Positions 1,617 through 44,235 of a stretch of 64,000 bases of DNA are shown here, piece after piece (positions within the stretch are counted from its first letter, which is position 1; each line of letters opens with the position of its first letter). A program made the position numbers and the translations under genes. The DNA comes from Dehalococcoidales bacterium (GTDB lineage Bacteria > Chloroflexota > Dehalococcoidia > Dehalococcoidales > Fen-1064). Under the pieces are notes generated by a model. That model did no database searches. It was not told the DNA's origin and saw only the letters and a list, made by a program, of their open reading frames with translations. The stretch covers positions 6,737 through 70,736 of the forward strand of contig JAURWL010000051.1 of the NCBI GenBank assembly GCA_030654965.1. Direction: 5' to 3'.

Positions 1617-2075
1617 ATGAAAAGAGTCCTGGTCAATGAACCCGCTTGCATGGGGTGCCATCTCTGCGAGGTGCACTGCCAGCTTCAGCATTCACGTTCC
1701 AGAGACCTGCTCAAAGCCTTCAAGAAGGAATCCCCCAAACCCACCCCCCGTCTCCGTATTGAAGTACGGAAACCGGTCTTCTTCTCGCTTCGCTGTCAAC
1801 AGTGCACGGAACCATCCTGTGTTTCTGCCTGCCTGACTGGCGCCCTCTCCCGCAACCCGGAAACGGGTGTAGTCACCACCGATGAAGACAGGTGCATCGG
1901 ATGCTGGACGTGCATTCTTGCCTGTCCGTATGGTAGTATCCGACAAGATGCCCTGAAACACAAACCTGTGAAATGCGACCTCTGCCAGGGAGCCGAGACG
2001 CCCGCCTGTGTGCTCAACTGCCCTAATGAAGCGCTTACCTGTGAAGAGGTCACTGCTAAGGTTCTGGTCAGATGA
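1617..2075 (+). CDS. 4Fe-4S dicluster ferredoxin-domain protein, first gene of the glutamate synthase operon
   Basis: Cys clusters CMGCHLCEVHC, CQQCTEPSCVSAC, CIGCWTCILACP and CDLCQG..CVLNCP. The stop overlaps the next start (ATGA). Confidence 0.85.
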   Translation: MKRVLVNEPACMGCHLCEVHCQLQHSRSRDLLKAFKKESPKPTPRLRIEVRKPVFFSLRCQQCTEPSCVSACLTGALSRNPETGVVTTDEDRCIGCWTCILACPYGSIRQDALKHKPVKCDLCQGAETPACVLNCPNEALTCEEVTAKVLVR

Positions 2076-2689
2076 TTACAGTTATTGATTATGGCGCTGG
2101 TAATCTGCGTAGTGTGGTCAATGCACTCACGCTACTTGGCTATCCCCACCGGGTGAGCCAGAAACCGGCTGATGTGCTCAGTGCCGATGCTGTTATCTTA
2201 CCCGGAGTCGGTGCTGCCGGCGATACAATGAAGAGCCTGGAAAAACTTTCCCTCATTAAACCAATCAAACAATATATCGCTGAAGGGAGGCCTTTTTTTG
2301 GTATCTGTATCGGACTTCAAGTCCTGCTGACAACCACTGAAGAAGGGGGTAGCCATAAATGTCTGGGTATTATCCCGGGTAAAGTTCGTAAACTAACCCC
2401 CGGGCTCAAAATACCGCACATGGGCTGGAATCAGGTAAAGCAACTCACCGCCCATCCCATCTTCTCGGGTATCCCGGATAACACGAATTTCTATTTCGTG
2501 CACAGCTACTATGCCATTCCAGAGAGCAACACTGCGGTCATCGGCACCACCGATTACGGTATCTCATTCTGCAGTGTTCTGGCACAGGGCAAACTGGTCG
2601 CTACGCAATTTCACCCGGAAAAGAGCGGGGAATGGGGACTGAAGCTATATGATAACTTTCTGAAGATGGCGGGGGAGAACAAGAGATGA
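2072..2689 (+). CDS. hisH: Imidazole glycerol phosphate synthase glutamine amidotransferase subunit HisH
   Basis: HisH hallmarks: GAGNLRSV, GICIGLQ (catalytic Cys), HMGWN, FVHSYY, QFHPEKS. Confidence 0.9.
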   Translation: MITVIDYGAGNLRSVVNALTLLGYPHRVSQKPADVLSADAVILPGVGAAGDTMKSLEKLSLIKPIKQYIAEGRPFFGICIGLQVLLTTTEEGGSHKCLGIIPGKVRKLTPGLKIPHMGWNQVKQLTAHPIFSGIPDNTNFYFVHSYYAIPESNTAVIGTTDYGISFCSVLAQGKLVATQFHPEKSGEWGLKLYDNFLKMAGENKR

Positions 2690-4011
2690 CCGGGACACTG
2701 GACACAAAATATCTCATAATAGGTAATTCCGCCGGTGGTATTGGCGCGGCGGAAGCAATCCGGCAGTTAGACAGGTCCGGCTCCATAACTATTATCTCTG
2801 ATGAGCCTTATCCCGCCTACTCCCGCCCGCTTATTTCCAAATACCTCGCCGGGGAATGCAAAATTGAGAAGATGCTTTTCCGTCCGTCTGATTTCTATGA
2901 GAAAAATTCTATCAGAGCTTTGCCGGGCAGGAAGGCAGTGCAACTTGATACCAAGGGACACACCGTAAAAATTGACGATGGTACAGTCATTGCATGGGAG
3001 CAACTCTTACTTGCCACCGGCGGCTCCCCGATTATTCCACAAATGGAAGGCGGGAACAGTCCTGCTGTCTTTACCTTCACCACGCTGGATGATGCCAGAG
3101 CAATCGACCATTACATAAAGAAGGGAATGCGGGCAGTAGTCATTGGCGGTGGTCTCATCGGCGTGAGTGTCACCGAGGCGCTGGTCAAACGCGGCGTCAG
3201 AGTCACCATTATCGAAATGAAAGACCGCATTCTCAATACGATTCTGGATGAGACAACATCGACGATGGCGACCGCTATTCTGGAAAAACATGGGGTGAAA
3301 ATTATCACCAACCACACAGTCACCGAAATCAACAGTGAATTTACCACCGACCGTATTCACGCCGTTACACTGGATGACAGCCGGGGAATCTCTTGCGAGG
3401 CAGTCATTGTCGCCATCGGTGTGCGACCGCGTTTAGAACTGGCAGCAAGCGCGGGCATCAAAGTCAATCGTGGTATCATCGTTGACCGCACCATGAAAAC
3501 ATCAAAATCGGATATTTATGCATGTGGTGATGCCGCAGAGGCTTATGATTTTATTCAGGGTGAAAACAGGGTCACCCCCATCTGGCCAAATGCCTATCTC
3601 GGCGGGAGGGTAGCCGGCTTTAATATGGCAGGTGTTTCCACAAAATACACCGGCGCTACCTCAATGAACTCGCTCAACTACTTTGGCATGGCAGTCACAT
3701 CCGCTGGCATGGTTATGCCACCCGATAAATCCTATGAAGTTATCAGCCGGCAGAACGAACGGAACTACCGGAAAGTGATTTTAAAAGATGGTTTGCTCAT
3801 CGGGCTAATTTTCTGTGGGGATATTGAGCAATCGGGCATCGTCTATGGCTTAATGAAAGACAGGGTTAATGTGTCCGATTTTAAACAGACGCTGGTCGCC
3901 GACGACTTCAGCTTCGTTTCTCTACCTGAGCCACTCTGGAGAGAGAGGTTAGCAGGTTCATTCAAGCCACAAACGGAGTCCGAACCAATCACCGTGGGGG
4001 TACTGCAATGA
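2686..4011 (+). CDS. FAD/NAD(P)-dependent pyridine nucleotide-disulfide-family oxidoreductase, likely electron input for glutamate synthase
   Basis: Two Rossmann dinucleotide motifs (IIGNSAGGIGAAE and VVIGGGLIGVSVTE) and a CGD motif (YACGDAAE). ATGA overlaps occur at both junctions. Confidence 0.8.
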   Translation: MTGTLDTKYLIIGNSAGGIGAAEAIRQLDRSGSITIISDEPYPAYSRPLISKYLAGECKIEKMLFRPSDFYEKNSIRALPGRKAVQLDTKGHTVKIDDGTVIAWEQLLLATGGSPIIPQMEGGNSPAVFTFTTLDDARAIDHYIKKGMRAVVIGGGLIGVSVTEALVKRGVRVTIIEMKDRILNTILDETTSTMATAILEKHGVKIITNHTVTEINSEFTTDRIHAVTLDDSRGISCEAVIVAIGVRPRLELAASAGIKVNRGIIVDRTMKTSKSDIYACGDAAEAYDFIQGENRVTPIWPNAYLGGRVAGFNMAGVSTKYTGATSMNSLNYFGMAVTSAGMVMPPDKSYEVISRQNERNYRKVILKDGLLIGLIFCGDIEQSGIVYGLMKDRVNVSDFKQTLVADDFSFVSLPEPLWRERLAGSFKPQTESEPITVGVLQ

Positions 4012-5147
4012 AAGACATGAGGAAAGTCAACAATCCGCACAATGATGACAAAGTAATCGATGCCTGCTCCATCTTCGGCGCTATGGACGTCACCGGTCGC
4101 CGATTCTCGGGTAACGGAGTCATCAAAGCTATCACCAATATGCACGACCGTAGTAACGGGTTAGGTGGCGGCTTTGCTGTCTACGGACTGTACCCTGCTT
4201 ATGCTGATTCCTATGCTTTCCACATCATGTACCTCAATGATGCGGCACAGAACCAGACCGAAGCTTTCCTAAAAGAGAATCTCCATATTCTGTATGGTGA
4301 AAAGGTGCCGACAAAGCCGACTGCGGGCATTGTCAACCCGCCGCTCTTCTGGCGTTATTTCGCCGAAGTCGGCAACCATAAACTGGAAGACATCCCTGAT
4401 GATGACTACATCGTCGCGAAGGTAATGCAGATTAATACCACCATTGATGATGTCTTTGTCTTCTCCAGCGGCAAGAACATGGGCGTCTTCAAAGGCGTTG
4501 GCTATCCGGAGCAAATCGCCGCTTATTTCTGCTTGGAACAGTACCAGGGTTATCTCTGGACAGCGCACGGCCGGTTTCCCACGAACACGCCGGGGTGGTG
4601 GGGCGGCGCTCACCCCTTTAGCGTCCTCGATTGGACGGTAGTGCACAATGGTGAAATCTCATCTTACGGCATCAACCGCCGCTGTCTGGAGCAATTCGGC
4701 TACCAGTGTACCATGCAAACCGATACGGAAGTGGTCGCCTATGCCGTCGATTTATTAGTACGCAAACACGGTCTACCCATAGAACTGGTGGCGAAAATCC
4801 TGGCACCGCCCTTCTGGAGCAATATTTCCCGGCAGGCTAACGGACAGAAGGAACTTCTGCTCACACTCCGTCAGGTCTATGGTAGCCTGCTTCTGAACGG
4901 ACCGTTCACCTTTATCATTGCTCATCAGGGGGAGATGATTGGTCTTACCGACCGCATCCGCCTACGCCCGCTCACCGTCGGGGAAAAGGGCAGTATGCTC
5001 TACCTCTCCTCGGAGGAATCAGCCATCCGACTGGTTAGTCCTGACCTTGACCGGGCGTGGACGCCGGTGGGCGGTGAGCCGGTTATCGGCAGGCTGGGCA
5101 AACCACTCCCATCTCAACGTGAATTGGTAATCGCTGGAGTTATGTGA
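4008..5147 (+). CDS. Class-II (Ntn) glutamine amidotransferase domain protein, archaeal-type glutamate synthase domain 1
   Basis: ACSIFG candidate nucleophile Cys, HGRFPTN, and [10 protein letters not shown], a motif typical of GltB/PurF-type amidotransferases. It is a stand-alone ~380 aa protein, as in split glutamate synthases. Confidence 0.85.
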
Positions 5148-5148
5148 A

Positions 5149-5940
5149 ATGCTTACAAAACGTATTATCCCCTGCCTTGATGTAAAAGCCGGGCGGGTCG
5201 TCAAAGGCGTGAAGTTCCGCGACCTCCGTGATGCCGGTGACCCAGTGGAATTAGCCGCTTTTTATAATGAACAAGGCGCCGATGAGCTGGTTTTTTATGA
5301 CATCACCGCTTCCAGTGATGACCGCGCCATCATGCGCGAGGTAGTAGAGCGCACCGCCAACCAGATATTTATTCCTCTCACCGTCGGGGGCGGACTTCGT
5401 ACTGTGGAAGACATGCATCGTATGCTTCAGGTTGGCGCCGATAAGGTCTCGATAAACACCGCCGCGGTTCTGAATCCAAAACTTATTACGGAAGGCGCGC
5501 GACGATTCGGCAGTCAATGCATCGTCTTGGGCATGGATGCCAAGAGAGTTACTGTCTCCAGTCCTGTCCGCTGGGAGGTGTTCACCCACACCGGAGCAGA
5601 CGGCGGACGCGGCACCGGTCTGGACGCAATTGAGTGGGCGCATAAGGCGGTAGAACTGGGCGCGGGCGAGATAGTGGTGAACAGCATTGACGCCGATGGC
5701 ACTCAGGCCGGATACGACCTGGAACTGTTACGGGCTATTTCCGAAAGTGTGACCGTGCCCGTAGTCGCCAGCGGTGGCGCCGGCGCTCCGGATGACCTCT
5801 TTCAGGCGCTCATCACGGGTAAAGCGGACGCCGTGCTTGCCGCCAGCATTTTTCACTACGGCACTTATTCAATTAGAGACGTTAAGAAATTCCTGTTAAA
5901 CAAGGGCATCCCGGTGAGGTTGGAGGTAGGGAAACCGTGA
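5149..5940 (+). CDS. hisF: Imidazole glycerol phosphate synthase cyclase subunit HisF
   Basis: The N-terminus [33 protein letters not shown] and ASGGAG are all classic HisF motifs. Confidence 0.92.
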
Positions 5941-7442
5941 AAATGCTCGTGCCTCCGAAGTTCAGAGTGGTGCGCGATGCGACGCGCTGTATCGGATGTC
6001 AGGTCTGCGTCAACCAGTGCAGTTTTGACGCTCACTATTATGATGCCGAAGACGTCGTCGTATGCAGTCGGGATGAAAACTGTGTCGCCTGCCATCGCTG
6101 TGCCACATTCTGTCCGACGGGCGCTCTGACTATTACCCGTAATCCGCTTGATTACCGTGAGAACCAGAATTGGCATCGCGAGGATATTGAAGACATCTGG
6201 CGGCAAGCAGAGAGCGGCGGCATGTTGCTCACAGGCATGGGTACTGACAAAGGCTACCCTATCTACTGGGACCATCTGCTCCTGAACGCCAGTCAGGTGA
6301 CCAACCCTTCCATCGACCCGCTCCGTGAACCGATGGAGTTGACCACATATCTGGGCAGGAAACCAGATAAGGTTAAAATAAGCCCCGACTCACTAAAACT
6401 TGAAACAGAGATGGCGCCGCAGGTCAGAATTGACGTGCCGGTAATGTTCTCTGCAATGTCCTATGGGGCAGTCAGCCTGAATGTCCACAAATCGCTGGCG
6501 CGCGCCGCCACGGAAATGGGCACGCTCTGGAATACCGGCGAGGGTGGTTTACACCCCAGCCTCTATAAATACGGGAAGAACACAATCGTCCAGGTAGCTT
6601 CGGGGCGGTTTGGCGTACAGCCCAGCTACCTTCATGCGGCGCGTGTCGTTGAAATCAAAATCGGGCAGGGCGCCAAACCGGGTATTGGCGGCCATCTGCC
6701 TGCGGAAAAGGTCAGCGCCGAGGTCTCTATGACACGAATGATTCCCCGGGGCACGGATGCCCTCTCCCCCGCTCCTCAGCACGATATTTATTCGATAGAG
6801 GATTTGACGCAACTCATCTACGCACTGAAAGAAGCGACCAATTACACCAAGCCAATATCGGTAAAAATTGCGGCAGTACATAACTCGGCGGCAATTGCCA
6901 GTGGCATGGTGCGGGCAGGTGCGGACATTATTGTCCTGGATGGGTTGCGGGGCGCTACTGGCGCCGCCCCCAAAGTCATCCGTGACAACGTTGGCATCCC
7001 CATTGAACTGGCACTGGCTTCAGTCGATACCAGATTACGACAGGAAGGCATTCGCAATCAGGCATCGCTGGTTATCTCCGGCGGTATCCGGAACAGCGGT
7101 GATGTCACTAAAGCCATCGCCCTCGGCGCCGATGCGGTCAATATCGGCACAGCGGCGCTCGTCGCGCTCGGCTGTCATGTCTGCCAGCAATGTCACACCG
7201 GGAAATGTGCCTGGGGCATCTGCACCACCGACCTTTCTCTGACACGGCGCATCAATCCCGAAATCGGTGCACGGCGTCTGGCGAATCTCTTGCGCGGCTG
7301 GAGTCTGGAAATCAAGGACATGCTCGGCGGCATGGGTATCAACGCTATCGAAAGTTTGCGCGGCAACCGGCTCCACCTCCGCGGTGTCGGACTGACGGAT
7401 ACGGAATTGGAAATCCTTGGAGTAAGGATGGCGGGGAGTTAA
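5937..7442 (+). CDS. Glutamate synthase FMN-binding/synthase domain protein with N-terminal 2x[4Fe-4S], archaeal-type domain 2
   Basis: [11 protein letters not shown] and [12 protein letters not shown] are followed by a GltS FMN-domain-like core ([42 protein letters not shown]). The GTG start overlaps the hisF stop. Confidence 0.9.
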
Positions 7443-7443
7443 G

Positions 7444-8202
7444 ATGGAAAGAAACAAGACGGCAACACTGGCGACCATTGATGCTACCAGCTTGCACTAC
7501 CGTAATCTCAATGCGCAACTACGCGACCTGGTCGCCGGCGGCACAGAAAAAATTATCATCAACAACGTATATGGCCAGCGGTATATTGGCACGGACTTGA
7601 ATAAGCCGGTCGAAATCGAGATACACGGCACACCAGGCAATGACCTAGGCGCTTTTATGGATGGTCCGACCGTCACCATTTACGGCAATGCCCAGGATGG
7701 CACCGGTAATACTATGAATGATGGCAGAATCATCGTGCACGGGCGCGCGGGCGATATCACCGGACTCTCAGCGCGGGGCGGGGAAATCTATGTCAGAGAC
7801 AGTGTGGGGTACCGCGCCGGCATCCACATGAAGGCATTTGGAGATAAAATGCCAGCGCTTGTTATTGGAAGCACGGCGCAGGATTTTGTCGGCGAGTATA
7901 TGGCGGGTGGTGTCCTTATTCTCCTCGGTATCGGATTGGAAGGAAATCAACATAAAGCCAGCTTCATTGGCACGGGCATGCACGGCGGTGCCATCTACTT
8001 CAGGGGCTCTATCGAAGAACACCAGTTAGGCAAAGAAGTCGGTATCGCAGAACTGAGCGGGGAAGATAGAACTACCTTGACTCGTCTGGTGACAAAATTC
8101 TCCCGCTATTTTAACTGTGATGCGGAAGGTATCCTAAAGGAGAAATTCACCAAACTCTATCCTAAATACCTCCGACCTTACGGTCAACTCTACACCTATT
8201 GA
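7444..8202 (+). CDS. Glutamate synthase GXGXG-domain protein, archaeal-type domain 3
   Basis: Repeated GXGXG-type beta-helix motifs (IHGTPGNDLGAFMDG, IYGNAQDGTGNTMNDG, VHGRAGDITG, GEYMAGG). Confidence 0.88.
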   Translation: MERNKTATLATIDATSLHYRNLNAQLRDLVAGGTEKIIINNVYGQRYIGTDLNKPVEIEIHGTPGNDLGAFMDGPTVTIYGNAQDGTGNTMNDGRIIVHGRAGDITGLSARGGEIYVRDSVGYRAGIHMKAFGDKMPALVIGSTAQDFVGEYMAGGVLILLGIGLEGNQHKASFIGTGMHGGAIYFRGSIEEHQLGKEVGIAELSGEDRTTLTRLVTKFSRYFNCDAEGILKEKFTKLYPKYLRPYGQLYTY

Positions 8203-8870
8203 GGTGCGCTTTGTTTCAGGTTCTACTGGTGGCAAAACCGGGTGGAGAGGCGAGCAAACTGACCGCAGCGCTCAGCCGTAACAACTTTACGTGCAGTATG
8301 GTGGGCAGCGCTGATGACGCCCTACAACAGGTCAACATACGCCTCCCCGACTTATTCCTCCTTGAAGTTGGCAGTATTCCGGAGAGCGAACACCTCTGTC
8401 GGTATCTGCGGGAGGAGAAGAAGCTCCCCGTTCTTGCCATTACCTCAATGGAAACGGCGCTCAATCTCGACGGCACCATCGATGATTTCGTACTCAGTCC
8501 TGTAAACACAGATGAGGTTGTCACCAGAGTAAAACGCCTGCTAAACAAAAAAACGAAAGCCGCCAGCCCGGAACAAATCACCATCGGGAATCTGGTCATT
8601 GATACAATCAAATATGAAGTCTATATCAGTGGCAGACCGGTATCGCTCACCTTCCGTGAATACGAACTCCTCAAATTTCTAGCAACGAACCCCGGTCGGG
8701 TCTTCACCCGGGACGCACTACTGAATGGAGTCTGGGGAGAGGATTTTTTCGGGGGCGACCGCACCGTTGACGTTCACATCCGCAGACTACGCGGCAAAAT
8801 TGATGACCAGACTCACACCTACATTGATACTGTCCGCAATATCGGTTACCGCTTTGTGAAAAAAGCCTGA
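8199..8870 (+). CDS. OmpR/PhoB-family winged-helix regulator with a degenerate receiver domain; start codon uncertain (TTG 8199 or TTG 8211)
   Basis: The C-terminal region (LTFREYELLKFL...VDVHIRRLRGKI...TVRNIGYRF) is a typical OmpR-type wHTH. In a hand alignment to OmpR the N-terminal receiver-like domain lacks the acidic pair, has Glu where the phospho-Asp is expected (DLFLLEV), and has SP instead of KP. Confidence 0.85.
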   Translation: MRCALFQVLLVAKPGGEASKLTAALSRNNFTCSMVGSADDALQQVNIRLPDLFLLEVGSIPESEHLCRYLREEKKLPVLAITSMETALNLDGTIDDFVLSPVNTDEVVTRVKRLLNKKTKAASPEQITIGNLVIDTIKYEVYISGRPVSLTFREYELLKFLATNPGRVFTRDALLNGVWGEDFFGGDRTVDVHIRRLRGKIDDQTHTYIDTVRNIGYRFVKKA

Positions 8871-8880
8871 ACGCCACTCT

Positions 8881-8917
8881 GTAGGCATCTGTAACCGAAC
8901 CGTAATACTGCCGTAAT
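8881..8917 (+). promoter_or_regulatory. Phased direct repeats (GTAGG, GTAAC, GTAAT, GTAAT) upstream of the 122-aa gene; candidate response-regulator operator
   Basis: Pentamers start at 8881, 8891, 8902 and 8913 (spacing 10, 11, 11). They are embedded in a 59-nt block (8889-8947) that matches 9462-9520 at 47 of 59 positions by hand alignment. Confidence 0.55.
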
Positions 8918-8972
8918 AATTCTTCGCTAAAGTAGAGACATCTAAACCAGCAGTAGGATAAGGAGGGCAAAT

Positions 8973-9341
8973 ATGTCATACGATTGGGGACCAAATTTTA
9001 TTGTTCCTTCCGAAACCTTGAAGAAATTTTCCGGCACAGTGAGATTGCGCGAGATGCTTGACGAAGACCTTCTGAAGCAGGAGCTTAAGGAACTGGAACT
9101 GTCTGGTCCTGTTTTAAGAATCACCAATCCGTGGTACTACCGCAAGAAGGGCACCAGCACCTGGATAAAAATTGGCGAATCTGAGGATAAGTCGGAGAAT
9201 TTTGCCGTGCAATGGGACACCAGAAAACTGGCGAATGGGAGATATGAGGTGCTGGGTCTGATGCATGTCTTCGTCAATAGAAGCGGCATGGAATACGCAA
9301 TCGCACGACAGAGCATGGTCGAGGTTTCAGTTAAAAATTAA
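8973..9341 (+). CDS. Hypothetical 122-aa protein of unknown function
   Basis: ATG preceded by AAGGAGG. No recognisable motif. It shares its upstream element with amtB. Confidence 0.6.
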   Translation: MSYDWGPNFIVPSETLKKFSGTVRLREMLDEDLLKQELKELELSGPVLRITNPWYYRKKGTSTWIKIGESEDKSENFAVQWDTRKLANGRYEVLGLMHVFVNRSGMEYAIARQSMVEVSVKN

Positions 9342-9452
9342 TCCACTGTCTCATAACGTACCCGCGACTGAGAGACCGGTCATCTATGTTCTTACAAACC
9401 GGCTTTGATTTCGTTTATCTGAAAATGGTCAAACTGATAAAACCCAGTCGCC

Positions 9453-9490
9453 GTAATTAACCTGTAACATGCCCGTAATACTGACGTAAT
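9453..9490 (+). promoter_or_regulatory. Phased direct repeats (GTAAT, GTAAC, GTAAT, GTAAT) upstream of amtB; candidate response-regulator operator
   Basis: Pentamers start at 9453, 9464, 9475 and 9486, an exact 11-bp period. They are followed by a conserved TAAAGT..AGACATCTAAC block and the RBS. Confidence 0.55.
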
Positions 9491-9536
9491 AATTGCCCGT
9501 TAAAGTGAAGACATCTAACCTGATAGGAGGTGATGG

Positions 9537-10772
9537 ATGTCCATAAACTACGCCGACACTGCCTGGGTATTGATGTCGGCGGCGATGGTCTTATTTATGA
9601 CGCCGGGGCTTGCCTTCTTTTACGGCGGACTGGTGAGACGGAAGAATTTCCTTTCCACCATTATGATGAGCTTCGCCTGCCTGGGTCTGATTGGTGTGCT
9701 CTGGGTAGTCTATGGCTACAGCTTGAGCTTCGGACCTGACAAAGCTGGTATTATTGGCGGGCTGGACTTTTTTGGATTGGCAGGTGTCGGACAAGAACCA
9801 TCATCTGTTTATGCCACCACCATCCCCCACCTCGCCTTTATGACATATCAGGGAATGTTCGCGATTATTACCGTAGCGCTCATTACCGGTGCCGTAGTAG
9901 AACGCATCAAATTCAGCGCCCTCATGCTTTTTTCGGTCTTATGGTTTACCTTTGTCTACACCCCGGTTGCGCACTGGGTCTGGGGAAGCGGCGGCTGGCT
10001 GGCGAAATTGGGCGTGCTCGATTTCGCCGGCGGCACGGTCGTGCATATTGCGGCGGGTATTTCCGCCTTATCACTGGCTCTCTTACTCGGTCCCCGTCGC
10101 GGCTTCAAAGAAAAGGAGCCGATGGAACCGGGTAACATACCGATGGTCGCGCTCGGCGCCGGCATTCTCTGGTTCGGATGGTTTGGTTTCAATGCCGGCA
10201 GTGCCCTGACTTCCGGCGGGTTGGCATCCAGCGCTTTCGTCGCGACGAACATCTCTGCCGCAACGGCCGCCCTGGTCTGGATGATACTATCATGGATTTA
10301 CCGTCGTCCGTCCCTGCTTGGTGTTGCCACCGGCGCCGTGGCAGGGTTGGTAGCAATAACTCCTGCGGCAGGTTTCGTACAGCCGATTATGGGCATACCA
10401 ATCGGCGCTGGCGCTGCCATTCTCTGCTATTATATGATGTTGTTTCGCGCAAAGACCGGGATCGATGAATCACTGGATGTCTGGGCGGTACACGGGATGG
10501 GTGGCACGTGGGGCGCACTGGCAACCGGCATTTTCTCCAGCGTCGCGGTTAATTCTGCCGGGAAAGATGGCCTCATCTACGGCAACCCCAAACAACTTCT
10601 CCTGCAGTTAATCGGCGTTCTTGTTGTCTGGGCATTCGCCTTTATGATGACCTGGGTTATCGGCAAGGTAGTGAATGCGACCATCGGATTACGTGTCAGC
10701 AGTGAAGAGGAATCAGTCGGGTTGGACATCTCACAGCATGGTGAACGCGCCTATGGAGGACCACTGCGATGA
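9537..10772 (+). CDS. amtB: Ammonium transporter AmtB
   Basis: AFFYGGLVRRKN, DFAGGTVVHIAAG, GWFGFNAGSAL and VHGMGGTWGALATGIF. The protein is multi-TM. Confidence 0.95.
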   Translation: MSINYADTAWVLMSAAMVLFMTPGLAFFYGGLVRRKNFLSTIMMSFACLGLIGVLWVVYGYSLSFGPDKAGIIGGLDFFGLAGVGQEPSSVYATTIPHLAFMTYQGMFAIITVALITGAVVERIKFSALMLFSVLWFTFVYTPVAHWVWGSGGWLAKLGVLDFAGGTVVHIAAGISALSLALLLGPRRGFKEKEPMEPGNIPMVALGAGILWFGWFGFNAGSALTSGGLASSAFVATNISAATAALVWMILSWIYRRPSLLGVATGAVAGLVAITPAAGFVQPIMGIPIGAGAAILCYYMMLFRAKTGIDESLDVWAVHGMGGTWGALATGIFSSVAVNSAGKDGLIYGNPKQLLLQLIGVLVVWAFAFMMTWVIGKVVNATIGLRVSSEEESVGLDISQHGERAYGGPLR

Positions 10773-11107
10773 AAAAAATTGAGGCGATAATCCGGGAAGA
10801 AAAACTAGCCCCGGTCAAAAAGTCGCTCGAAGACCTCGGTTACTATGGTATGACCATTACCGAAGTAGGCGGGAGAGGCAGAGAGAAGGGTATCGCTCTA
10901 AAGTGGGGCGCTAAAGAGTATCGCGTCGATTTCCTCCCCAAGCTTAAGGTTGAAGTGATTGTCCTGGATGAAGACCTGTCTCCCGTTTTGAATGCCATTG
11001 TCAGAAGCGCCCGCACCGGTGAGACAGGTGATGGGAAAATTTTCATCATCCCCGTGGAAAATGCAATCCGCATTCGTACTGGCGATTCCGGCAGTAATGC
11101 CGTTTAG
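10769..11107 (+). CDS. glnK: P-II nitrogen regulatory protein, amtB-linked GlnK type
   Basis: 112 aa, MKKIEAIIR..., a T-loop-like GGRGREKG...KEY, and a C-terminal TGETGDGKIFI. The start overlaps the amtB stop. Confidence 0.93.
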   Translation: MKKIEAIIREEKLAPVKKSLEDLGYYGMTITEVGGRGREKGIALKWGAKEYRVDFLPKLKVEVIVLDEDLSPVLNAIVRSARTGETGDGKIFIIPVENAIRIRTGDSGSNAV

Positions 11108-11139
11108 TAATCTGAAAAATGATAAAGGAGGTTATATCA

Positions 11140-12483
11140 ATGCCAGCCAGGAAAAAGGATGAAAGCAAGGAATATGTTCTCAAGATGGCAAAGGAGAATG
11201 ATGTCAAGTTTATCCGCCTGTGGTTTACTGACATCCTCGGTATGCTCAAGAGCTTTGCCATCACCGTCGAGGAACTGGAGGGCGCGCTGGAAGAAGGCAT
11301 GGGATTTGACGGTTCGTCAATCGAAGGGTTCGCACGTATTGACGAAAGCGATATGGTCGCTATGCCCGACCCGGATACTTTCCAGATTCTCCCATGGAGA
11401 CCCCGCGAGCATAATGCCGTCGCCCGGATGTTCTGCGATGTCTTGAAACCCGGTGGTGAACCATTTGATGGCGACCCCCGTTATGTCCTCAAGAAAAACC
11501 TGAAAAAGGCGGCAGACCTGGGCTATACCTATTATGTTGGACCAGAGCTGGAGTATTTCTACTTTAGAGATTCCAAAAGCACAGAGTTTCTTGATGCCGG
11601 CGGCTATTTTGACCTGACCCCACTGGATGCTGCCACAGACATGAGACGTGAAACCGTCCTCACTCTAGAACAAATGGGCATCGGTGTGGAGTATTCCCAT
11701 CATGAGGTCGCCCCCAGCCAGCACGAAATCGATATGCGCTATACAGATGCCCTGACCATGGCAGATAGCGTTATGACCTACCGCCTGGTGGTCAAGCAGG
11801 TTGCCATTAATCATGGTGTCTATGCCACTTTTATGCCCAAGCCTGTCTTCGGTATTAATGGCAGCGGTATGCACGTCCACCAATCGCTTTTCAAGGGCGA
11901 TAAGAACGCCTTTTTCGACCCAAAAGGGAAGTACTATCTATCGAAAATCGCGCGTAGTTATGTCGCCGGTCTATTGAAGTACGCCCCGGAAATCACTGCC
12001 GTTAATAACCAATGGATAAACTCCTACAAACGTCTGGTTCCCGGCTACGAAGCGCCTGTCTATCTATCATGGGCAAAACGCAATCGTAGTGACCTCATCC
12101 GTGTGCCGGAATACCGCCCCGGAAGAGAAAAAGCAACCAGAATCGAACTCCGTTCGCCCGACCCTGCCTGCAATCCATACCTGTGCTTCAGTGTGATGCT
12201 AGCGGCGGGTTTGAAGGGTATTGAGGACGGGCTGGAACCCCCCGAGCCGGTTGAAGAGAACGTCTACGAGATGAATGAAGAGGAACGCGCGAAACGCGGT
12301 ATCCGCACCTTGCCCGCCAGTCTGTCTGAGGCTATCCAGCTAACCGAGAAAAGTAAGCTGGTGCGGGAAGCTCTTGGTGAGCATGTTTTTAGCGCCTTCA
12401 TCACCAACAAGAAGATTGAATGGGACCTCTATCGTACTCAGGTTACCGGGTATGAGGTTAACCGGTACTTGCCAATTCTCTAA
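11140..12483 (+). CDS. glnA: Glutamine synthetase type I
   Basis: DGSSIEGF, MPKPVFGINGSGMHVHQS, NSYKRLVPGYEAP and RIELRSPD. I place the start at ATG 11140, 8 nt after AAGGAGG (11125-11131), rather than at the ORF-track start 11119. Confidence 0.95.
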   Translation: MPARKKDESKEYVLKMAKENDVKFIRLWFTDILGMLKSFAITVEELEGALEEGMGFDGSSIEGFARIDESDMVAMPDPDTFQILPWRPREHNAVARMFCDVLKPGGEPFDGDPRYVLKKNLKKAADLGYTYYVGPELEYFYFRDSKSTEFLDAGGYFDLTPLDAATDMRRETVLTLEQMGIGVEYSHHEVAPSQHEIDMRYTDALTMADSVMTYRLVVKQVAINHGVYATFMPKPVFGINGSGMHVHQSLFKGDKNAFFDPKGKYYLSKIARSYVAGLLKYAPEITAVNNQWINSYKRLVPGYEAPVYLSWAKRNRSDLIRVPEYRPGREKATRIELRSPDPACNPYLCFSVMLAAGLKGIEDGLEPPEPVEENVYEMNEEERAKRGIRTLPASLSEAIQLTEKSKLVREALGEHVFSAFITNKKIEWDLYRTQVTGYEVNRYLPIL

Positions 12484-12519
12484 AGAGGTAGTAATCTGAA
12501 GCTAAAAGGAGGTGGTAAA

Positions 12520-14256
12520 ATGCGCCGCCTGCGGATTGCTATGGCGCAGATTAATACCACCGTCGGCGATTTTGACGGCAATGTAAAAAAGATTCTGGGA
12601 GCCGTTGATACCGCCCGTTCTGCGGGTGCTGATATTGTCACGCTCCCGGAACTTGCCGTTTGCGGTTATCCGCCGGAAGACCTCCTCTTCAAGCCACAAT
12701 TTATCCAGGCAAATCTGGACTCGCTTCAGAAAATCGCTGAGTCCGCAAAGGGCATCACGGTCATCACCGGCTTTGTGGACGCCGATGGCGATATCTATAA
12801 TGCCGCCGCCGTTCTTCACTTCGGCAGAATAGCCGGCTTGTACCGCAAGATTTACCTCCCGAATTACGGCGTCTTCGATGAAAACCGGTATTTCCGCGCA
12901 GGTTCGGACTGCCCCATCTTCGTCATTGGTGGTGTGGCAATCGGCATCACTATCTGTGAAGATATCTGGTATGAAGCTGGACCCGCGACTGTTCAGGCAA
13001 ATGCCGGCGCTGAGGTTATTATTAATATCAGTGCCTCTCCATATCACGCCGGTAAAGGCGCTGCCCGTGAGAGGATGATCGCCACCCGCGCTTCGGATAC
13101 GGTGGCGATATTCGCTTATAATAATGCCGTCGGCGGGCAGGACGAGCTCGTCTTCGATGGTCACAGTGTCATCATGGATGAGAAAGGAATCCTTATTGCT
13201 CGCGGCAAGCAGTTTGAAGAAGACCTGATTATCGCCGACCTCGATGTAGAATCGGTTTTCCGGGCACGCCTGCATGACCCGCGTCAGCGGAAAGAGACCT
13301 TGCTGGCGGAGCAACAGCACTGGCGTCAGACCCGAACCGTCATCTCTGAGACACCGTTCTCCAGCGCCGGACACCCGGCAATAAAACAGCAGGCTGATGT
13401 GCTCGATCTCCCCACTGAAGTCTACCGCGCGCTTGTGCTGGGCACACATGACTACATTTTGAAGAACGACTTTAACAAAGTAGTCATCGGATTATCCGGC
13501 GGGATTGATTCGGCGATAGTGGCGACGATTGCTGTAGATGCACTCGGTAGTGAGAATGTTATTGGGGTATCCATGCCCTCACGCTTCTCATCAGAAGGAA
13601 GCAAAACCGATGCCCAGCGGCTGGCGGAGAACCTGAAAATCAAGCTCCTCACCATCCCCATCGAGAAAGTCTACATGGCATATCTGAACACACTCTCCGA
13701 ATCGTTCACCGGGGCTCAACCCGATATCACTGAAGAGAATATCCAGGCGCGTATCCGGGGTAATCTACTCATGGCGCTATCCAATAAATTCGGATGGTTA
13801 GTGCTCACAACAGGAAACAAAAGTGAAATGGCTACCGGCTATACCACGCTTTACGGTGATATGGTAGGTGGTTTTGCCGTTATCAAAGATGTACCCAAAA
13901 CGCTGGTCTATAAAATTGCCCGGCGCCGTAATCAAATGGCAGGTTATGAATTGATACAGGAATCAATCTTCACCAAACCACCCTCCGCGGAATTGCGTCC
14001 CGACCAGAAAGATATTGACAGCCTGCCACCGTATGAAGTCCTCGACCCTATTCTGACCGCCTACGTGGAAGACGATAAGTCTGTGGAGCAAATCATTGCC
14101 CTGGGGTTTGATAAGGCGACCGCACAGAGGACAGCCAAACTCGTTGACCGTAGTGAGTATAAGCGGAGACAGGCGCCACCGGGAGTAAAAATCACCACCC
14201 GTGCCTTTGGACGGGACAGAAGATTACCTATCGTCAATCGGTTCAAGGAATGGTGA
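12520..14256 (+). CDS. nadE: Glutamine-dependent NAD+ synthetase (CN-hydrolase domain plus PP-loop synthetase domain)
   Basis: The N-terminal nitrilase-like domain has LPELAVCGY and ITICEDIW. The C-terminal domain has the PP-loop GLSGGIDSA. Confidence 0.93.
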   Translation: MRRLRIAMAQINTTVGDFDGNVKKILGAVDTARSAGADIVTLPELAVCGYPPEDLLFKPQFIQANLDSLQKIAESAKGITVITGFVDADGDIYNAAAVLHFGRIAGLYRKIYLPNYGVFDENRYFRAGSDCPIFVIGGVAIGITICEDIWYEAGPATVQANAGAEVIINISASPYHAGKGAARERMIATRASDTVAIFAYNNAVGGQDELVFDGHSVIMDEKGILIARGKQFEEDLIIADLDVESVFRARLHDPRQRKETLLAEQQHWRQTRTVISETPFSSAGHPAIKQQADVLDLPTEVYRALVLGTHDYILKNDFNKVVIGLSGGIDSAIVATIAVDALGSENVIGVSMPSRFSSEGSKTDAQRLAENLKIKLLTIPIEKVYMAYLNTLSESFTGAQPDITEENIQARIRGNLLMALSNKFGWLVLTTGNKSEMATGYTTLYGDMVGGFAVIKDVPKTLVYKIARRRNQMAGYELIQESIFTKPPSAELRPDQKDIDSLPPYEVLDPILTAYVEDDKSVEQIIALGFDKATAQRTAKLVDRSEYKRRQAPPGVKITTRAFGRDRRLPIVNRFKEW

Positions 14257-32490: not shown

Positions 32491-32615
32491 GCTTCCTGGC
32501 AGTGGCATATTTTCCACAAAAGGTTGCCCTCTCAGTATCGTCTGCGCTGAAGCGTTTCACTTCCGTGTTCGGGATGGGAACGGGTGGTGCCACTTCGCCC
32601 AAACCACCAGGAAGC
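32491..32615 (-). rRNA. rrf: 5S ribosomal RNA (ends +/- 5 nt)
   Basis: The reverse complement contains ccacccguucccaucccgaacacggaagugaaacgc and gauacug. The terminal helix is gcuuccuggugg / ccacugccaggaagc. Confidence 0.9.
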
Positions 32616-32968
32616 CTATTTACTTGTTAACAATTTCAGAGGGCTACTTCTTCCCACCTTCCGGTGAGAGTTTATGCCCCATCCGGGTAGATTATGGTCT
32701 CAAAGCTTTTCGCTGATACTTCTATCATACGGCACAAGAGCCTGCTTGCGCAAGAGACCATAAGTTTCGGAGCGCTATAATGGTCTCAATCAAATCTTAT
32801 TGTAGCACACACATGCCAGAACGTAAAGGCTCAAAGCGGAAACCTGAAATCAATTTACGTGGTGAAGTACTTGCTATGTATTAAAGATATAGTACTGCAC
32901 TTATATAGAAAAACCGAGCTTTTCGGCTCAGTTTTTCCAAGGAGGGAGCCAATACCAACTCTGAAACA

Positions 32969-35936
<2,968 letters not shown>

Positions 35937-43780: not shown

Positions 43781-43834
43781 GTTGGGGGCGTAGTAAATTT
43801 GTAACCAAAATGTTACATGTTTGTAACGTTATCA

Positions 43835-43863
43835 TTACCAGAGGCAGGAATTGTTAATATTAT
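43835..43863 (+). promoter_or_regulatory. Second promoter candidate upstream of the zinc-ribbon gene, overlapped by phased GTAAC/GTTAC palindromes (43801-43838)
   Basis: TTACCA (43835-43840), a 17-nt spacer, then TATTAT (43858-43863). Pentamers GTAAC, GTTAC, GTAAC and ATTAC start at 43801, 43812, 43823 and 43834. Confidence 0.4.
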
Positions 43864-44022
43864 CGTAACCATAAGGGTTTATAGTTGTATCTCGTAAATC
43901 GGAGACCATTCGAGAATTTATTGTTAAGCTGAAAAGGTCGTAAGCGGGTGGCGATAACCAACCCGCAAGTAACAAGGGAAGAGCTTCAGGAGAAGCTCTC
44001 GGCTCCCCGGGAGGTGGTTAAT

Positions 44023-44235
44023 ATGGCGGTCTGGAAGTTGAAGAGTTGCCCTCGCTGCAATGGCGACCTCTTCATTCAGCGTGAAATTGACGGCTGGTAT
44101 GAAGAGTGTTTGCTGTGCGGCTATCAGCGCGATGTGTCCAACATTGTTGCGGCAGACACTGATGGTCAAATCAAAATCAAGGGTCAACTGGCAGATAAGA
44201 GACTGTATACCAACGTTCGCTCTAACGCGAACTGA
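44023..44235 (+). CDS. Small zinc-ribbon protein (70 aa; alternative GTG start at 43948 gives 95 aa)
   Basis: CPRC-(18)-CLLC four-Cys ribbon. The ATG at 44023 is preceded by GGAGGTGG at ideal spacing. Confidence 0.6.
   Translation: MAVWKLKSCPRCNGDLFIQREIDGWYEECLLCGYQRDVSNIVAADTDGQIKIKGQLADKRLYTNVRSNAN

Follow-up and report, generated by a model that had tools for sequence, protein, structure and literature searches.

What controls the genes for nitrogen assimilation in an uncultured Dehalococcoidales bacterium of groundwater metagenomes? The question is raised by a 64,000-nucleotide stretch of its contig JAURWL010000051.1 (positions 6,737 to 70,736 of GCA_030654965.1; hereafter the window, in whose own coordinates all positions are given), in which two intergenic regions carry copies of the same upstream element, comprised of GTAAY pentamers spaced at one helical turn. 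The order of genes around this element is a glutamate synthase (glt) operon, an OmpR-family regulator (8211-8870), a gene for a 122-residue protein (8973-9341), amtB, glnB, glnA, and nadE. The Dehalococcoidia, among them organohalide-respiring bacteria that are put to use in bioremediation, occur in abundance in aquifers and sediments. Based on the sequence of the element, its conservation, and the affinities of the adjacent regulator, we consider it probable that its two copies are sigma-70-type promoters dependent on a GlnR-type activator and serving a small nitrogen-assimilation regulon; as such, they would represent a familiar mechanism, predicted in this setting, rather than a new kind of system.

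Upstream of the 122-residue protein gene the pentamers GTAGG, GTAAC, GTAAT, and GTAAT start at 8881, 8891, 8902, and 8913, whereas upstream of amtB GTAAT, GTAAC, GTAAT, and GTAAT start at 9453, 9464, 9475, and 9486, each of them being where an earlier note, made from the sequence alone, had placed it. That note had also described the pentamers as phased at exactly 11 bp, which is true of all four in the amtB copy and of those at 8891, 8902, and 8913 in the other, but not of the GTAGG at 8881, which lies 10 bp from the next pentamer. As this degenerate pentamer (8881-8885) is out of phase by 1 bp, matches poorly, and is unconserved (its equivalent is GCAGG in L001 and GCATG in L005, the loci of two close relatives), it is probably not a site. 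Thus, the copy upstream of the 122-residue protein gene has three good sites (8891-8917) and that upstream of amtB has four (9453-9490), all on the forward strand and all predicted to be bound by the regulator; the three of the former copy are retained in L001 and L005. Between the blocks 8889-8947 and 9462-9520, 47 of 59 positions agree, exactly as counted by hand in the earlier note, as against a mean of 26.4 and a maximum of 33 for the best 59-nt match in 200 shuffles of the intergenic regions; a repeat search lengthens the shared stretch to 76 nt, 74% identical (8889-8964 and 9462-9537), with the copies 573 bp apart. Across the 64-kb window the pattern GTAAY-N6-GTAAY-N6-GTAAY has three perfect matches, every one of them in these two regions, and seven matches with up to two mismatches compared to an expectation of 0.45.

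Exactly 10 nt past the proximal pentamer of each array is the hexamer TAAAGT (8928-8933 for the 122-residue protein gene and 9501-9506 for the amtB operon), which we predict to be the -10 element, followed by an AGACAT block (8936-8941 and 9509-9514), conserved among relatives, that would furnish the discriminator and a CAT start site. The predicted start is A8940, 7 nt past the -10 hexamer, in the first promoter and A9513 in the second. The segment TAAAGT..AGACATCTAA that the earlier note had found to be shared just ahead of both ribosome-binding sites is indeed present but is better read as this -10-like hexamer and the probable start-site region after it than as part of an operator. When a -35 element is sought 16-18 bp upstream of TAAAGT, the best agreement with TTGACA is at most two of six positions, and a generic sigma-70 scan misses the TAAAGT-based promoter. 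With TAAAGT at 9501-9506 as the -10 and A9513 as the start, the amtB pentamers come to lie at -60, -49, -38, and -27, and the three of the other promoter at about -49, -38, and -27; provided that TAAAGT is the -10 hexamer, this geometry fits the span, from about -60 to just past a non-optimal -35, that is expected of the sites of a GlnR regulon. The combination of 11-bp phasing, N10-TAnAGT, and no usable -35 supports the earlier suggestion that the predicted sites have the architecture of OmpR/PhoB-type activator sites reaching into the -35 position. The RNA-seq runs searched for the window sequence yielded no match.

The same organization recurs in relatives whose regulator is 88% down to ~52% identical to that of the window. 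Every related Dehalococcoidia contig holding amtB or glnA shows the element upstream of that gene, and in nearly all of the contigs the element is kept with an adjoining regulator gene. The layout in each lineage consists of two to four pentamers of the form G(T/A)AA(C/T), including GAAAY variants, at 11-bp spacing, followed by exactly 10 nt, TAnAGT, and usually nnAGACAT; the N10 spacing and the TAnAGT hexamer are kept in every lineage examined. In the 56 pooled sites the A at the fourth position is the most conserved base (50/56), with C or T before the pentamer and A after it; at the fifth position this clade mostly has T. A promoter weight matrix was built only from relatives with regulators no more than 73% identical, with the window and its two close relatives excluded. 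It scores the promoters of the 122-residue protein gene and of amtB at 42.2 and 40.2 bits, compared to 3.3 for the next best among 128,000 positions and 11.1 bits for the best score in 50 shuffles; the amtB copy scores 30.2 bits when taken as a four-site array. We also applied a geometry rule that asks for a proximal pentamer separated by N10 from a -10-like hexamer, with another pentamer one turn upstream in agreement at four or more of its five bases. In 14 distinct contigs, 240 kb in all, this rule gave 19 matches as against 0.48 expected. Of these, 17 are 28-78 nt upstream of amtB (11), glnA (3), or the 122-residue protein gene (3), and none of the 19 in these context loci has a phosphate or cell-wall gene downstream. 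The earlier note had proposed a candidate operator of a nitrogen regulon and a weight-matrix scan for further instances near nitrogen genes; between them, the matrix run on the 64-kb window and the geometry rule run on the 14 contigs recovered both the instances and the link to nitrogen genes.

Variation between strains follows the same lines. Within the arrays, those substitutions that contigs of related strains support best (8899, 8901, 8908, 9470, and 9484) are all in spacers, and the 50 nt upstream of the amtB array in the same strains has at least eight substitutions and two indels; the variant A8930T turns the -10 hexamer of the 122-residue protein gene into TATAGT. A broader metagenome scan with GTAAY-N6-GTAAY-N6-GTAAY-N10-TANAGT is dominated by unrelated 11-bp tandem satellites, and so provides extra examples rather than an unbiased test of enrichment; these include at least five further amtB contigs and at least one further contig with the 122-residue protein gene. 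We also observed a related-strain contig (run X9) that follows the upstream region of amtB as far as 9470, continues with the promoter copy of the 122-residue protein gene from 8902, and then with an amtB-like leader (window regions 8902-8945 and 9311-9470 are concerned), a join for which gene conversion between the copies of the promoter may be responsible.

The regulator itself is an orphan member of the OmpR family with 219 residues, encoded as the last gene of the glt operon on the forward strand. Its likely start is the TTG at 8211 behind the Shine-Dalgarno sequence GAGGTG (the mechanically called open reading frame [ORF] starts at 8199), and its homologs have 216-219 residues with starts equivalent to 8211. 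The gene begins 9 nt past the stop codon of the GXGXG gene and is probably co-transcribed with the glt operon. The earlier note had recognized an OmpR-family regulator immediately upstream of the element, and this is supported by a match to the Pfam domain Trans_reg_C (E=4e-28), the C-terminal winged-helix domain alone being significant; its nearest characterized kin is GlnR, whose published site is GTAAC with 11-bp spacing. In comparisons with solved structures this DNA-binding domain reaches 112-114 bits against GlnR, followed by VicR (81), PhoB (72), RegX3 (70), and MtrA (62), and it is 55% identical to GlnR, 48-49% to VicR/WalR, and 39% to RegX3, pointing to the actinobacterial GlnR as its closest relative among the characterized members of the family. 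The best matches among solved structures are likewise GlnR (8hih, 8hig, and 8hml), with low overall identity; of these, 8hih is the transcription activation complex of Mycobacterium tuberculosis GlnR, and 8hml the GlnR DNA-binding domain from Saccharopolyspora erythraea on DNA (PMC10235972). The regulator retains all four base-contacting residues of SaeGlnR (R186, V190, R193, and R194) and 10 of the 11 phosphate-contacting residues, with a conservative replacement of K151 by R. Two further features, residue N212 and a loop without the two-residue insertion, are shared with GlnR alone among the sequences compared.

Alignment of 26 family members shows a DNA-binding domain that hardly varies, with invariant base-contacting residues, and a degenerate receiver that lacks the usual acidic pair. 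The acceptor position that aligns with the Asp of GlnR is Glu in 20 of the 26 members and Asp in the other six, and the conserved Lys of the receiver is Ser in the clade of the window. No histidine kinase gene (HisKA/HATPase) adjoins the regulator in the window or in any related locus, and the receiver is probably phosphorylation-independent. In all relatives the regulator gene adjoins, or is within ~5 kb of, amtB-glnB-glnA, glnA alone, or the glt genes, and a tblastn search of the window found neither a second OmpR-family gene nor an NrpR-like regulator. Assignment to other established families was considered and rejected. For PhoB, the score is 139.7 against a cut-off of 296.2 (TIGR02154), with no kinase nearby and no phosphate targets in the context loci; for WalR/YycF/VicR, it is 128.3 against a cut-off of 340 (NF040534), again with no kinase nearby and with a context of nitrogen genes. 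The regulator is also far below the NCBIfam cut-off for MtrA.

The likeness to GlnR extends from the protein to its predicted sites. The actinobacterial GlnR (Streptomyces, Mycobacterium, Saccharopolyspora, and Amycolatopsis) is similarly an orphan regulator of the OmpR/PhoB subfamily with amtB and glnA among its targets, and its boxes consist of 5-nt sites of the GTAAC/GnAAC type separated by 6-nt gaps and arranged head-to-tail, typically two boxes amounting to four sites. Both its a and b sites have the consensus GTAAC, and four protomers bind head-to-tail on a1-b1-a2-b2; in its amtB promoter the -35 is non-optimal while the -10 agrees with the consensus, and the proximal b2 site is downstream of the -35, in a scaffold of -64 to +13 (PMC10235972). 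The boxes have been described as gTnAc-n6-GaAAc in Streptomyces coelicolor and t/gTAAC-n6-Gc/aAAC in Mycobacterium smegmatis, with an irreplaceable A at the fourth position (PMC10704036). The key A at the fourth position and the features of the DNA-binding domain detailed above (55% identity, the contact residues including N212, and no two-residue loop insertion) are common to both, as would be, with TAAAGT as the -10, a non-optimal -35 with the proximal site downstream of it. The differences are that the host is a member of the Chloroflexota (Dehalococcoidales), that the fifth base of the pentamer is mostly T, that Glu in 20 of 26 members takes the place of the conserved Asp of GlnR, that the N-terminal domain is below the threshold of GlnR_1st, that the regulon looks small, and that the regulator is predicted to be co-transcribed with glutamate synthase genes.

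Other regulators are alike in part. The pho box is comprised of direct repeats with an 11-bp period that take the place of the -35 and stop 10 bp short of the -10. The comparison with pho boxes in the earlier note was apt; the same geometry is found at pst operons in other organisms, with the actinobacterial GlnR box being the more precise relative. PhoB of Escherichia coli and its relatives has in common with the system described here the repeat geometry, the regulator family, and the predicted head-to-tail mode of binding, while the regulator of the window has no PhoR partner, a degenerate receiver, nitrogen rather than phosphate targets, and a score far short of the PhoB cut-off; the match is one of shared geometry and not of membership in the Pho regulon. 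WalR/YycF/VicR of Firmicutes has nearly the same word and spacing, the four base-contacting residues are identical, and its DNA-binding domain is the next most similar; however, WalR is a kinase-partnered, essential regulator of the cell wall, unlike the orphan found here among nitrogen genes, which is far short of the WalR cut-off too. Finally, NtrC, NtcA, AmtR, the MerR-family GlnR and TnrA of Bacillus, and the archaeal NrpR all control amtB, glnB, and glnA but belong to unrelated protein families with unrelated operators, the Bacillus GlnR sharing only the name.

Given this kinship, we propose that the regulator would bind the pentamers head-to-tail on a single face of the helix, one protomer to each, from about -60 to -23. 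The promoter-proximal protomers would stand in for the missing -35 contact by recruiting or stabilizing RNA polymerase, and nitrogen scarcity would thereby switch on amtB-glnB-glnA(-nadE) and the gene for the 122-residue protein. As for the wider claim that a GlnR-type control is native to the Dehalococcoidia, with an orphan activator, a/b boxes, four protomers, a missing -35, a Glu-for-Asp pseudo-receiver, and perhaps a leader hairpin that would link the 5' end of the amtB mRNA with its start codon, we lean towards it with some reserve.

Several observations weigh against these proposals. The N-terminal domain of the regulator is below the Pfam cut-offs both of Response_reg (16.6 vs 30.2 bits) and of GlnR_1st (PF21695; 16.7 vs 27 bits). 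Its four base-contacting residues also occur in WalR and VicR and hence define a specificity class and not orthology, so that the DNA-binding domain by itself does not prove orthology to GlnR. The geometry of the element is identical to that at pst operons elsewhere, and the shape of the motif is accordingly not specific to nitrogen genes; a strong box was sought upstream of the glt operon and not found, and the scan of this particular genome covers 64 kb. In addition, the -10 assignment is drawn from conservation and geometry, and the sigma-70 scan proposes a different promoter, GTAACA-18-AATAAT (9464-9493), within the array, which would imply repression by occlusion.

The last of these points leads to the main rival, which we regard as unlikely, namely that the same regulator acts at the same sites as a repressor. 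Here, the pentamers themselves would supply a weak -35 and -10, with a transcription start near 9500 and with TAAAGT and AGACAT falling within the leader RNA, and the bound regulator would occlude RNA polymerase under nitrogen excess. The promoter proposed by the scan matches the consensus at 9 of 12 positions (GTAACA, 9464-9469, 18 bp, AATAAT, 9488-9493), and other phyla commonly keep amtB and glnA repressed when nitrogen is in excess, as exemplified by AmtR, TnrA, and NrpR. Yet, in distant relatives the sequence over the proximal pentamer makes a poor -10 (AAACAT, AACAAT), and TAnAGT, with the critical A2 and T6, is present at the invariant N10 in every lineage, with CAT exactly 7 nt later. 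Moreover, the span of the four sites (~-60 to -23) reproduces that of the GlnR activation complex, and N10-TAnAGT is also found at pst promoters, which are classically activated.

The amtB leader bears on the same issue. The conserved AGACAT block is complementary to AUGUCU at the start of the amtB ORF, and the two could form a hairpin (9509-9541) that would sequester the Shine-Dalgarno sequence and the AUG; we consider this feature suggestive. Folded from the A of AGACAT, the leader of the window reaches -14.2 kcal/mol (z = -3.0), and 6 of 12 distinct amtB leaders have z < -2, with a mean of -2.4 that weakens to -0.9 when folding begins at the canonical start. Changes that look compensatory occur in L077 (AGGUAU/AUGCCU with a CGG/CCG extension) and L067 (AGGCAU with AUGCCU), and the leader of L010 has the extension CUAA/UUAG; the relatives concerned in the complementarity are L009, L010, L013, L018, L067, and L077. 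In the fixed register 73% of cells pair, sliding one arm brings this down to 26-42%, and a result as good is reached by 14 of 500 shuffles; RNAalifold over all 12 amtB leaders gave no consensus structure. Such a hairpin requires a start within ~3 nt of the -10 hexamer, or else an upstream promoter, and is in conflict with the canonical start. Since the fold signal vanishes with a start at the canonical distance, either the complementarity is not realized in RNA or transcription starts earlier than we infer. The latter would favor the occlusion of polymerase by the regulator: an upstream start places the whole of the AGACAU...AUGUCU complementarity in the RNA, and it is only then that the leaders beat shuffles. 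A known cis-regulatory RNA, such as a glutamine riboswitch, was considered as well and rejected, as there is no Rfam match and no excess stability across the repeat: the Rfam searches yielded nothing at E up to 1 in 8000-12600 and nothing at the gathering score near the element in a scan of the whole window, and the two stretches from repeat to ATG are no more stable than their shuffled versions (z of +0.16 and -0.17).

A second and decidedly improbable rival would have another OmpR-family regulator of the PhoB/PhoP or WalR type, encoded elsewhere in the genome, bind the boxes, with the adjacent regulator a bystander. The pattern of the metagenome scan does precede, among the matches listed, pstS (L035, L124), pstCAB (L099), and pstS-phoU-pstC (L100) in other organisms, presumably as pho boxes of PhoB-type regulators with a GTAAY-like half-site. 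As the same pattern precedes these pst operons, the geometry appears to be general for OmpR/PhoB-type activator-dependent promoters, and the assignment to nitrogen control thus comes from genomic context and the sequence of the regulator. The WalR consensus, TGTWAH-N5-TGTWAH, also fits the boxes, and WalR and VicR have the same four base-contacting residues. Furthermore, PhoP and MtrA have been reported on GlnR-target promoters in Streptomyces (PMC10704036). Nevertheless, in every lineage examined no more than ~5 kb separates the gene for the regulator from the amtB or glnA promoter with its boxes, and in most the two are directly adjacent; the window has no second OmpR-family gene, none of the 19 geometry matches precedes a phosphate or cell-wall gene, and the adjacent regulator itself is far below the PhoB and YycF/WalR cut-offs given above (139.7/296.2 and 128.3/340). 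As for a recent, functionless segmental duplication, or a riboswitch or other RNA element of the 5' untranslated region, which the 74% identity of the 76-nt copies 573 bp apart and the duplication evident in the relocation of the 122-residue protein gene (see below) might suggest, this is very improbable and already largely refuted by conservation: the pentamers are kept while the spacers diverge in relatives with down to ~52% regulator identity that are without the duplication. In addition, no Rfam family matches at E up to 1, and the pentamer regions fold like shuffles.

We return to the proposed activator-dependent promoters and the genes that they would serve. The genes amtB (9537-10772), glnB (10769-11107), glnA (11119-12483), and nadE (12520-14256) are all on the forward strand in an order shared by relatives, and, as they overlap or are tightly spaced, they form a probable operon driven by the 9453-9506 promoter. 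Upstream, the glt operon (1617-8202) codes for a split, archaeal-type glutamate synthase with Fer4, GATase-1, Pyr_redox, GATase-2, HisF-like, GltB, and GXGXG components and has a predicted sigma-70-like promoter, TTGACA-17-TAGCAT (1518-1546). Within it we observed a HisH-like class-I amidotransferase (2072-2689) and a HisF-like protein (His_biosynth; 5149-5940), conserved in L019 and L023; a glutamate synthase operon is an unusual setting for such a pair resembling imidazole-glycerol-phosphate synthase. Between the predicted glt promoter and an integrase-like gene on the minus strand (278-1426; rve 28.4 bits, cut-off 32.6), the sequence GGTAAC-N9-GAGTCAAT occurs twice at a distance of 35 bp (1452-1474 and 1487-1509).

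The 122-residue protein belongs to a glutamate-synthase-associated family of more than 1,000 clusters, nearly all of exactly 122 residues and 65-70% identical, that has no match in Pfam or NCBIfam. Structure prediction yields, with confidence, an immunoglobulin (Ig)-like beta-sandwich (predicted local distance difference test [pLDDT] of 83), and a fold search of the PDB with this model recovered a generic Ig-like sandwich and no informative neighbor. Elsewhere its gene is inside the glutamate synthase operon, between those of Fer4 and GATase-1 (L019, L023, and L024), or directly after a glutamate synthase gene (L021), and its gene neighborhoods, in glutamate synthase operons of the archaeal type, indicate that it is a conserved, uncharacterized partner of glutamate synthase across Chloroflexota-like contigs. 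The glt operon of the window is without this gene at the usual position; instead, it is found on the forward strand between the regulator and amtB, an arrangement also seen in L001 and L005. It is followed by a terminator-like hairpin (9366-9381, forward strand; similar sequence in L001 and L005) that would separate the two transcription units. Hence, the second copy of the element goes back to a transfer of this gene to the side of amtB in this clade, accompanied by a duplication of the amtB promoter. Given that it is normally part of the glt operon and has here, as in L001 and L005, its own promoter copy, the repeat records a relocation that would place it under the direct control of the regulator.

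Some further observations touch on the regulator, its sites, and the locus at large. A third cluster of phased pentamers at 43788-43885, in alternating orientation, has GTAAC at 43801, GTTAC at 43812, GTAAC at 43823, and ATTAC at 43834, followed by TTAAT-N6-GTAAC-N10-TATAGT (43854-43885). It comes after a terminator-like hairpin, upstream of a small ORF of the zinc-ribbon type (~44024-44235, with a weak Lar_restr_allev match), and has a borderline score with the four-site matrix (17.6 against a shuffle maximum of 16.9); it could be a site of the same regulator or of another protein, or a chance occurrence. L018 codes for a second, receiver-less paralog of the regulator (8840-9166, 108 residues, Trans_reg_C only) with its own GTAAT-N6-GTAAT-N10-TATATT upstream and a second boxed amtB downstream (9401 onwards), which hints at autoregulation and at a variant consisting of the DNA-binding domain only. 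NrpR-like genes (PF08461 + PF01995) are found beside nitrogen genes in L009 (5880-6914), L010 (15372-16367), L013 (13545-14540), L019 (13585-14369, cut by the end of the locus), and L021 (4211-5209), and these neighbors, of the archaeal type of nitrogen repressor, suggest a second regulatory layer in those lineages. Lastly, the window has 23S and 5S ribosomal RNA (rRNA) genes on the minus strand (32494-35936) and no 16S gene in its 64 kb, and its rRNA genes are therefore unlinked here; unlinked rRNA genes are also reported for Dehalococcoides.

A search of the literature found no paper that connects Dehalococcoides or Chloroflexi with regulation of the GlnR type, and published work on GlnR regards it as actinobacterial. 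A GlnR-type nitrogen control appears to exist outside Actinobacteria and apparently had not been described in Chloroflexota. If true, the proposal would provide the first predicted nitrogen regulator and operator for the environmentally important, largely uncultured Dehalococcoidia, and a regulator, an operator that can be read from sequence, and a minimal regulon (amtB-glnB-glnA-nadE and the 122-residue protein) would make the regulation of nitrogen in this group directly testable. Annotators of metagenomes could then name a family that is now labeled "OmpR family" or mislabeled "PhoP". For the study of GlnR, it would offer a distant natural variant of the mechanism, one that has an acceptor Glu and a receiver reduced to a minimum.

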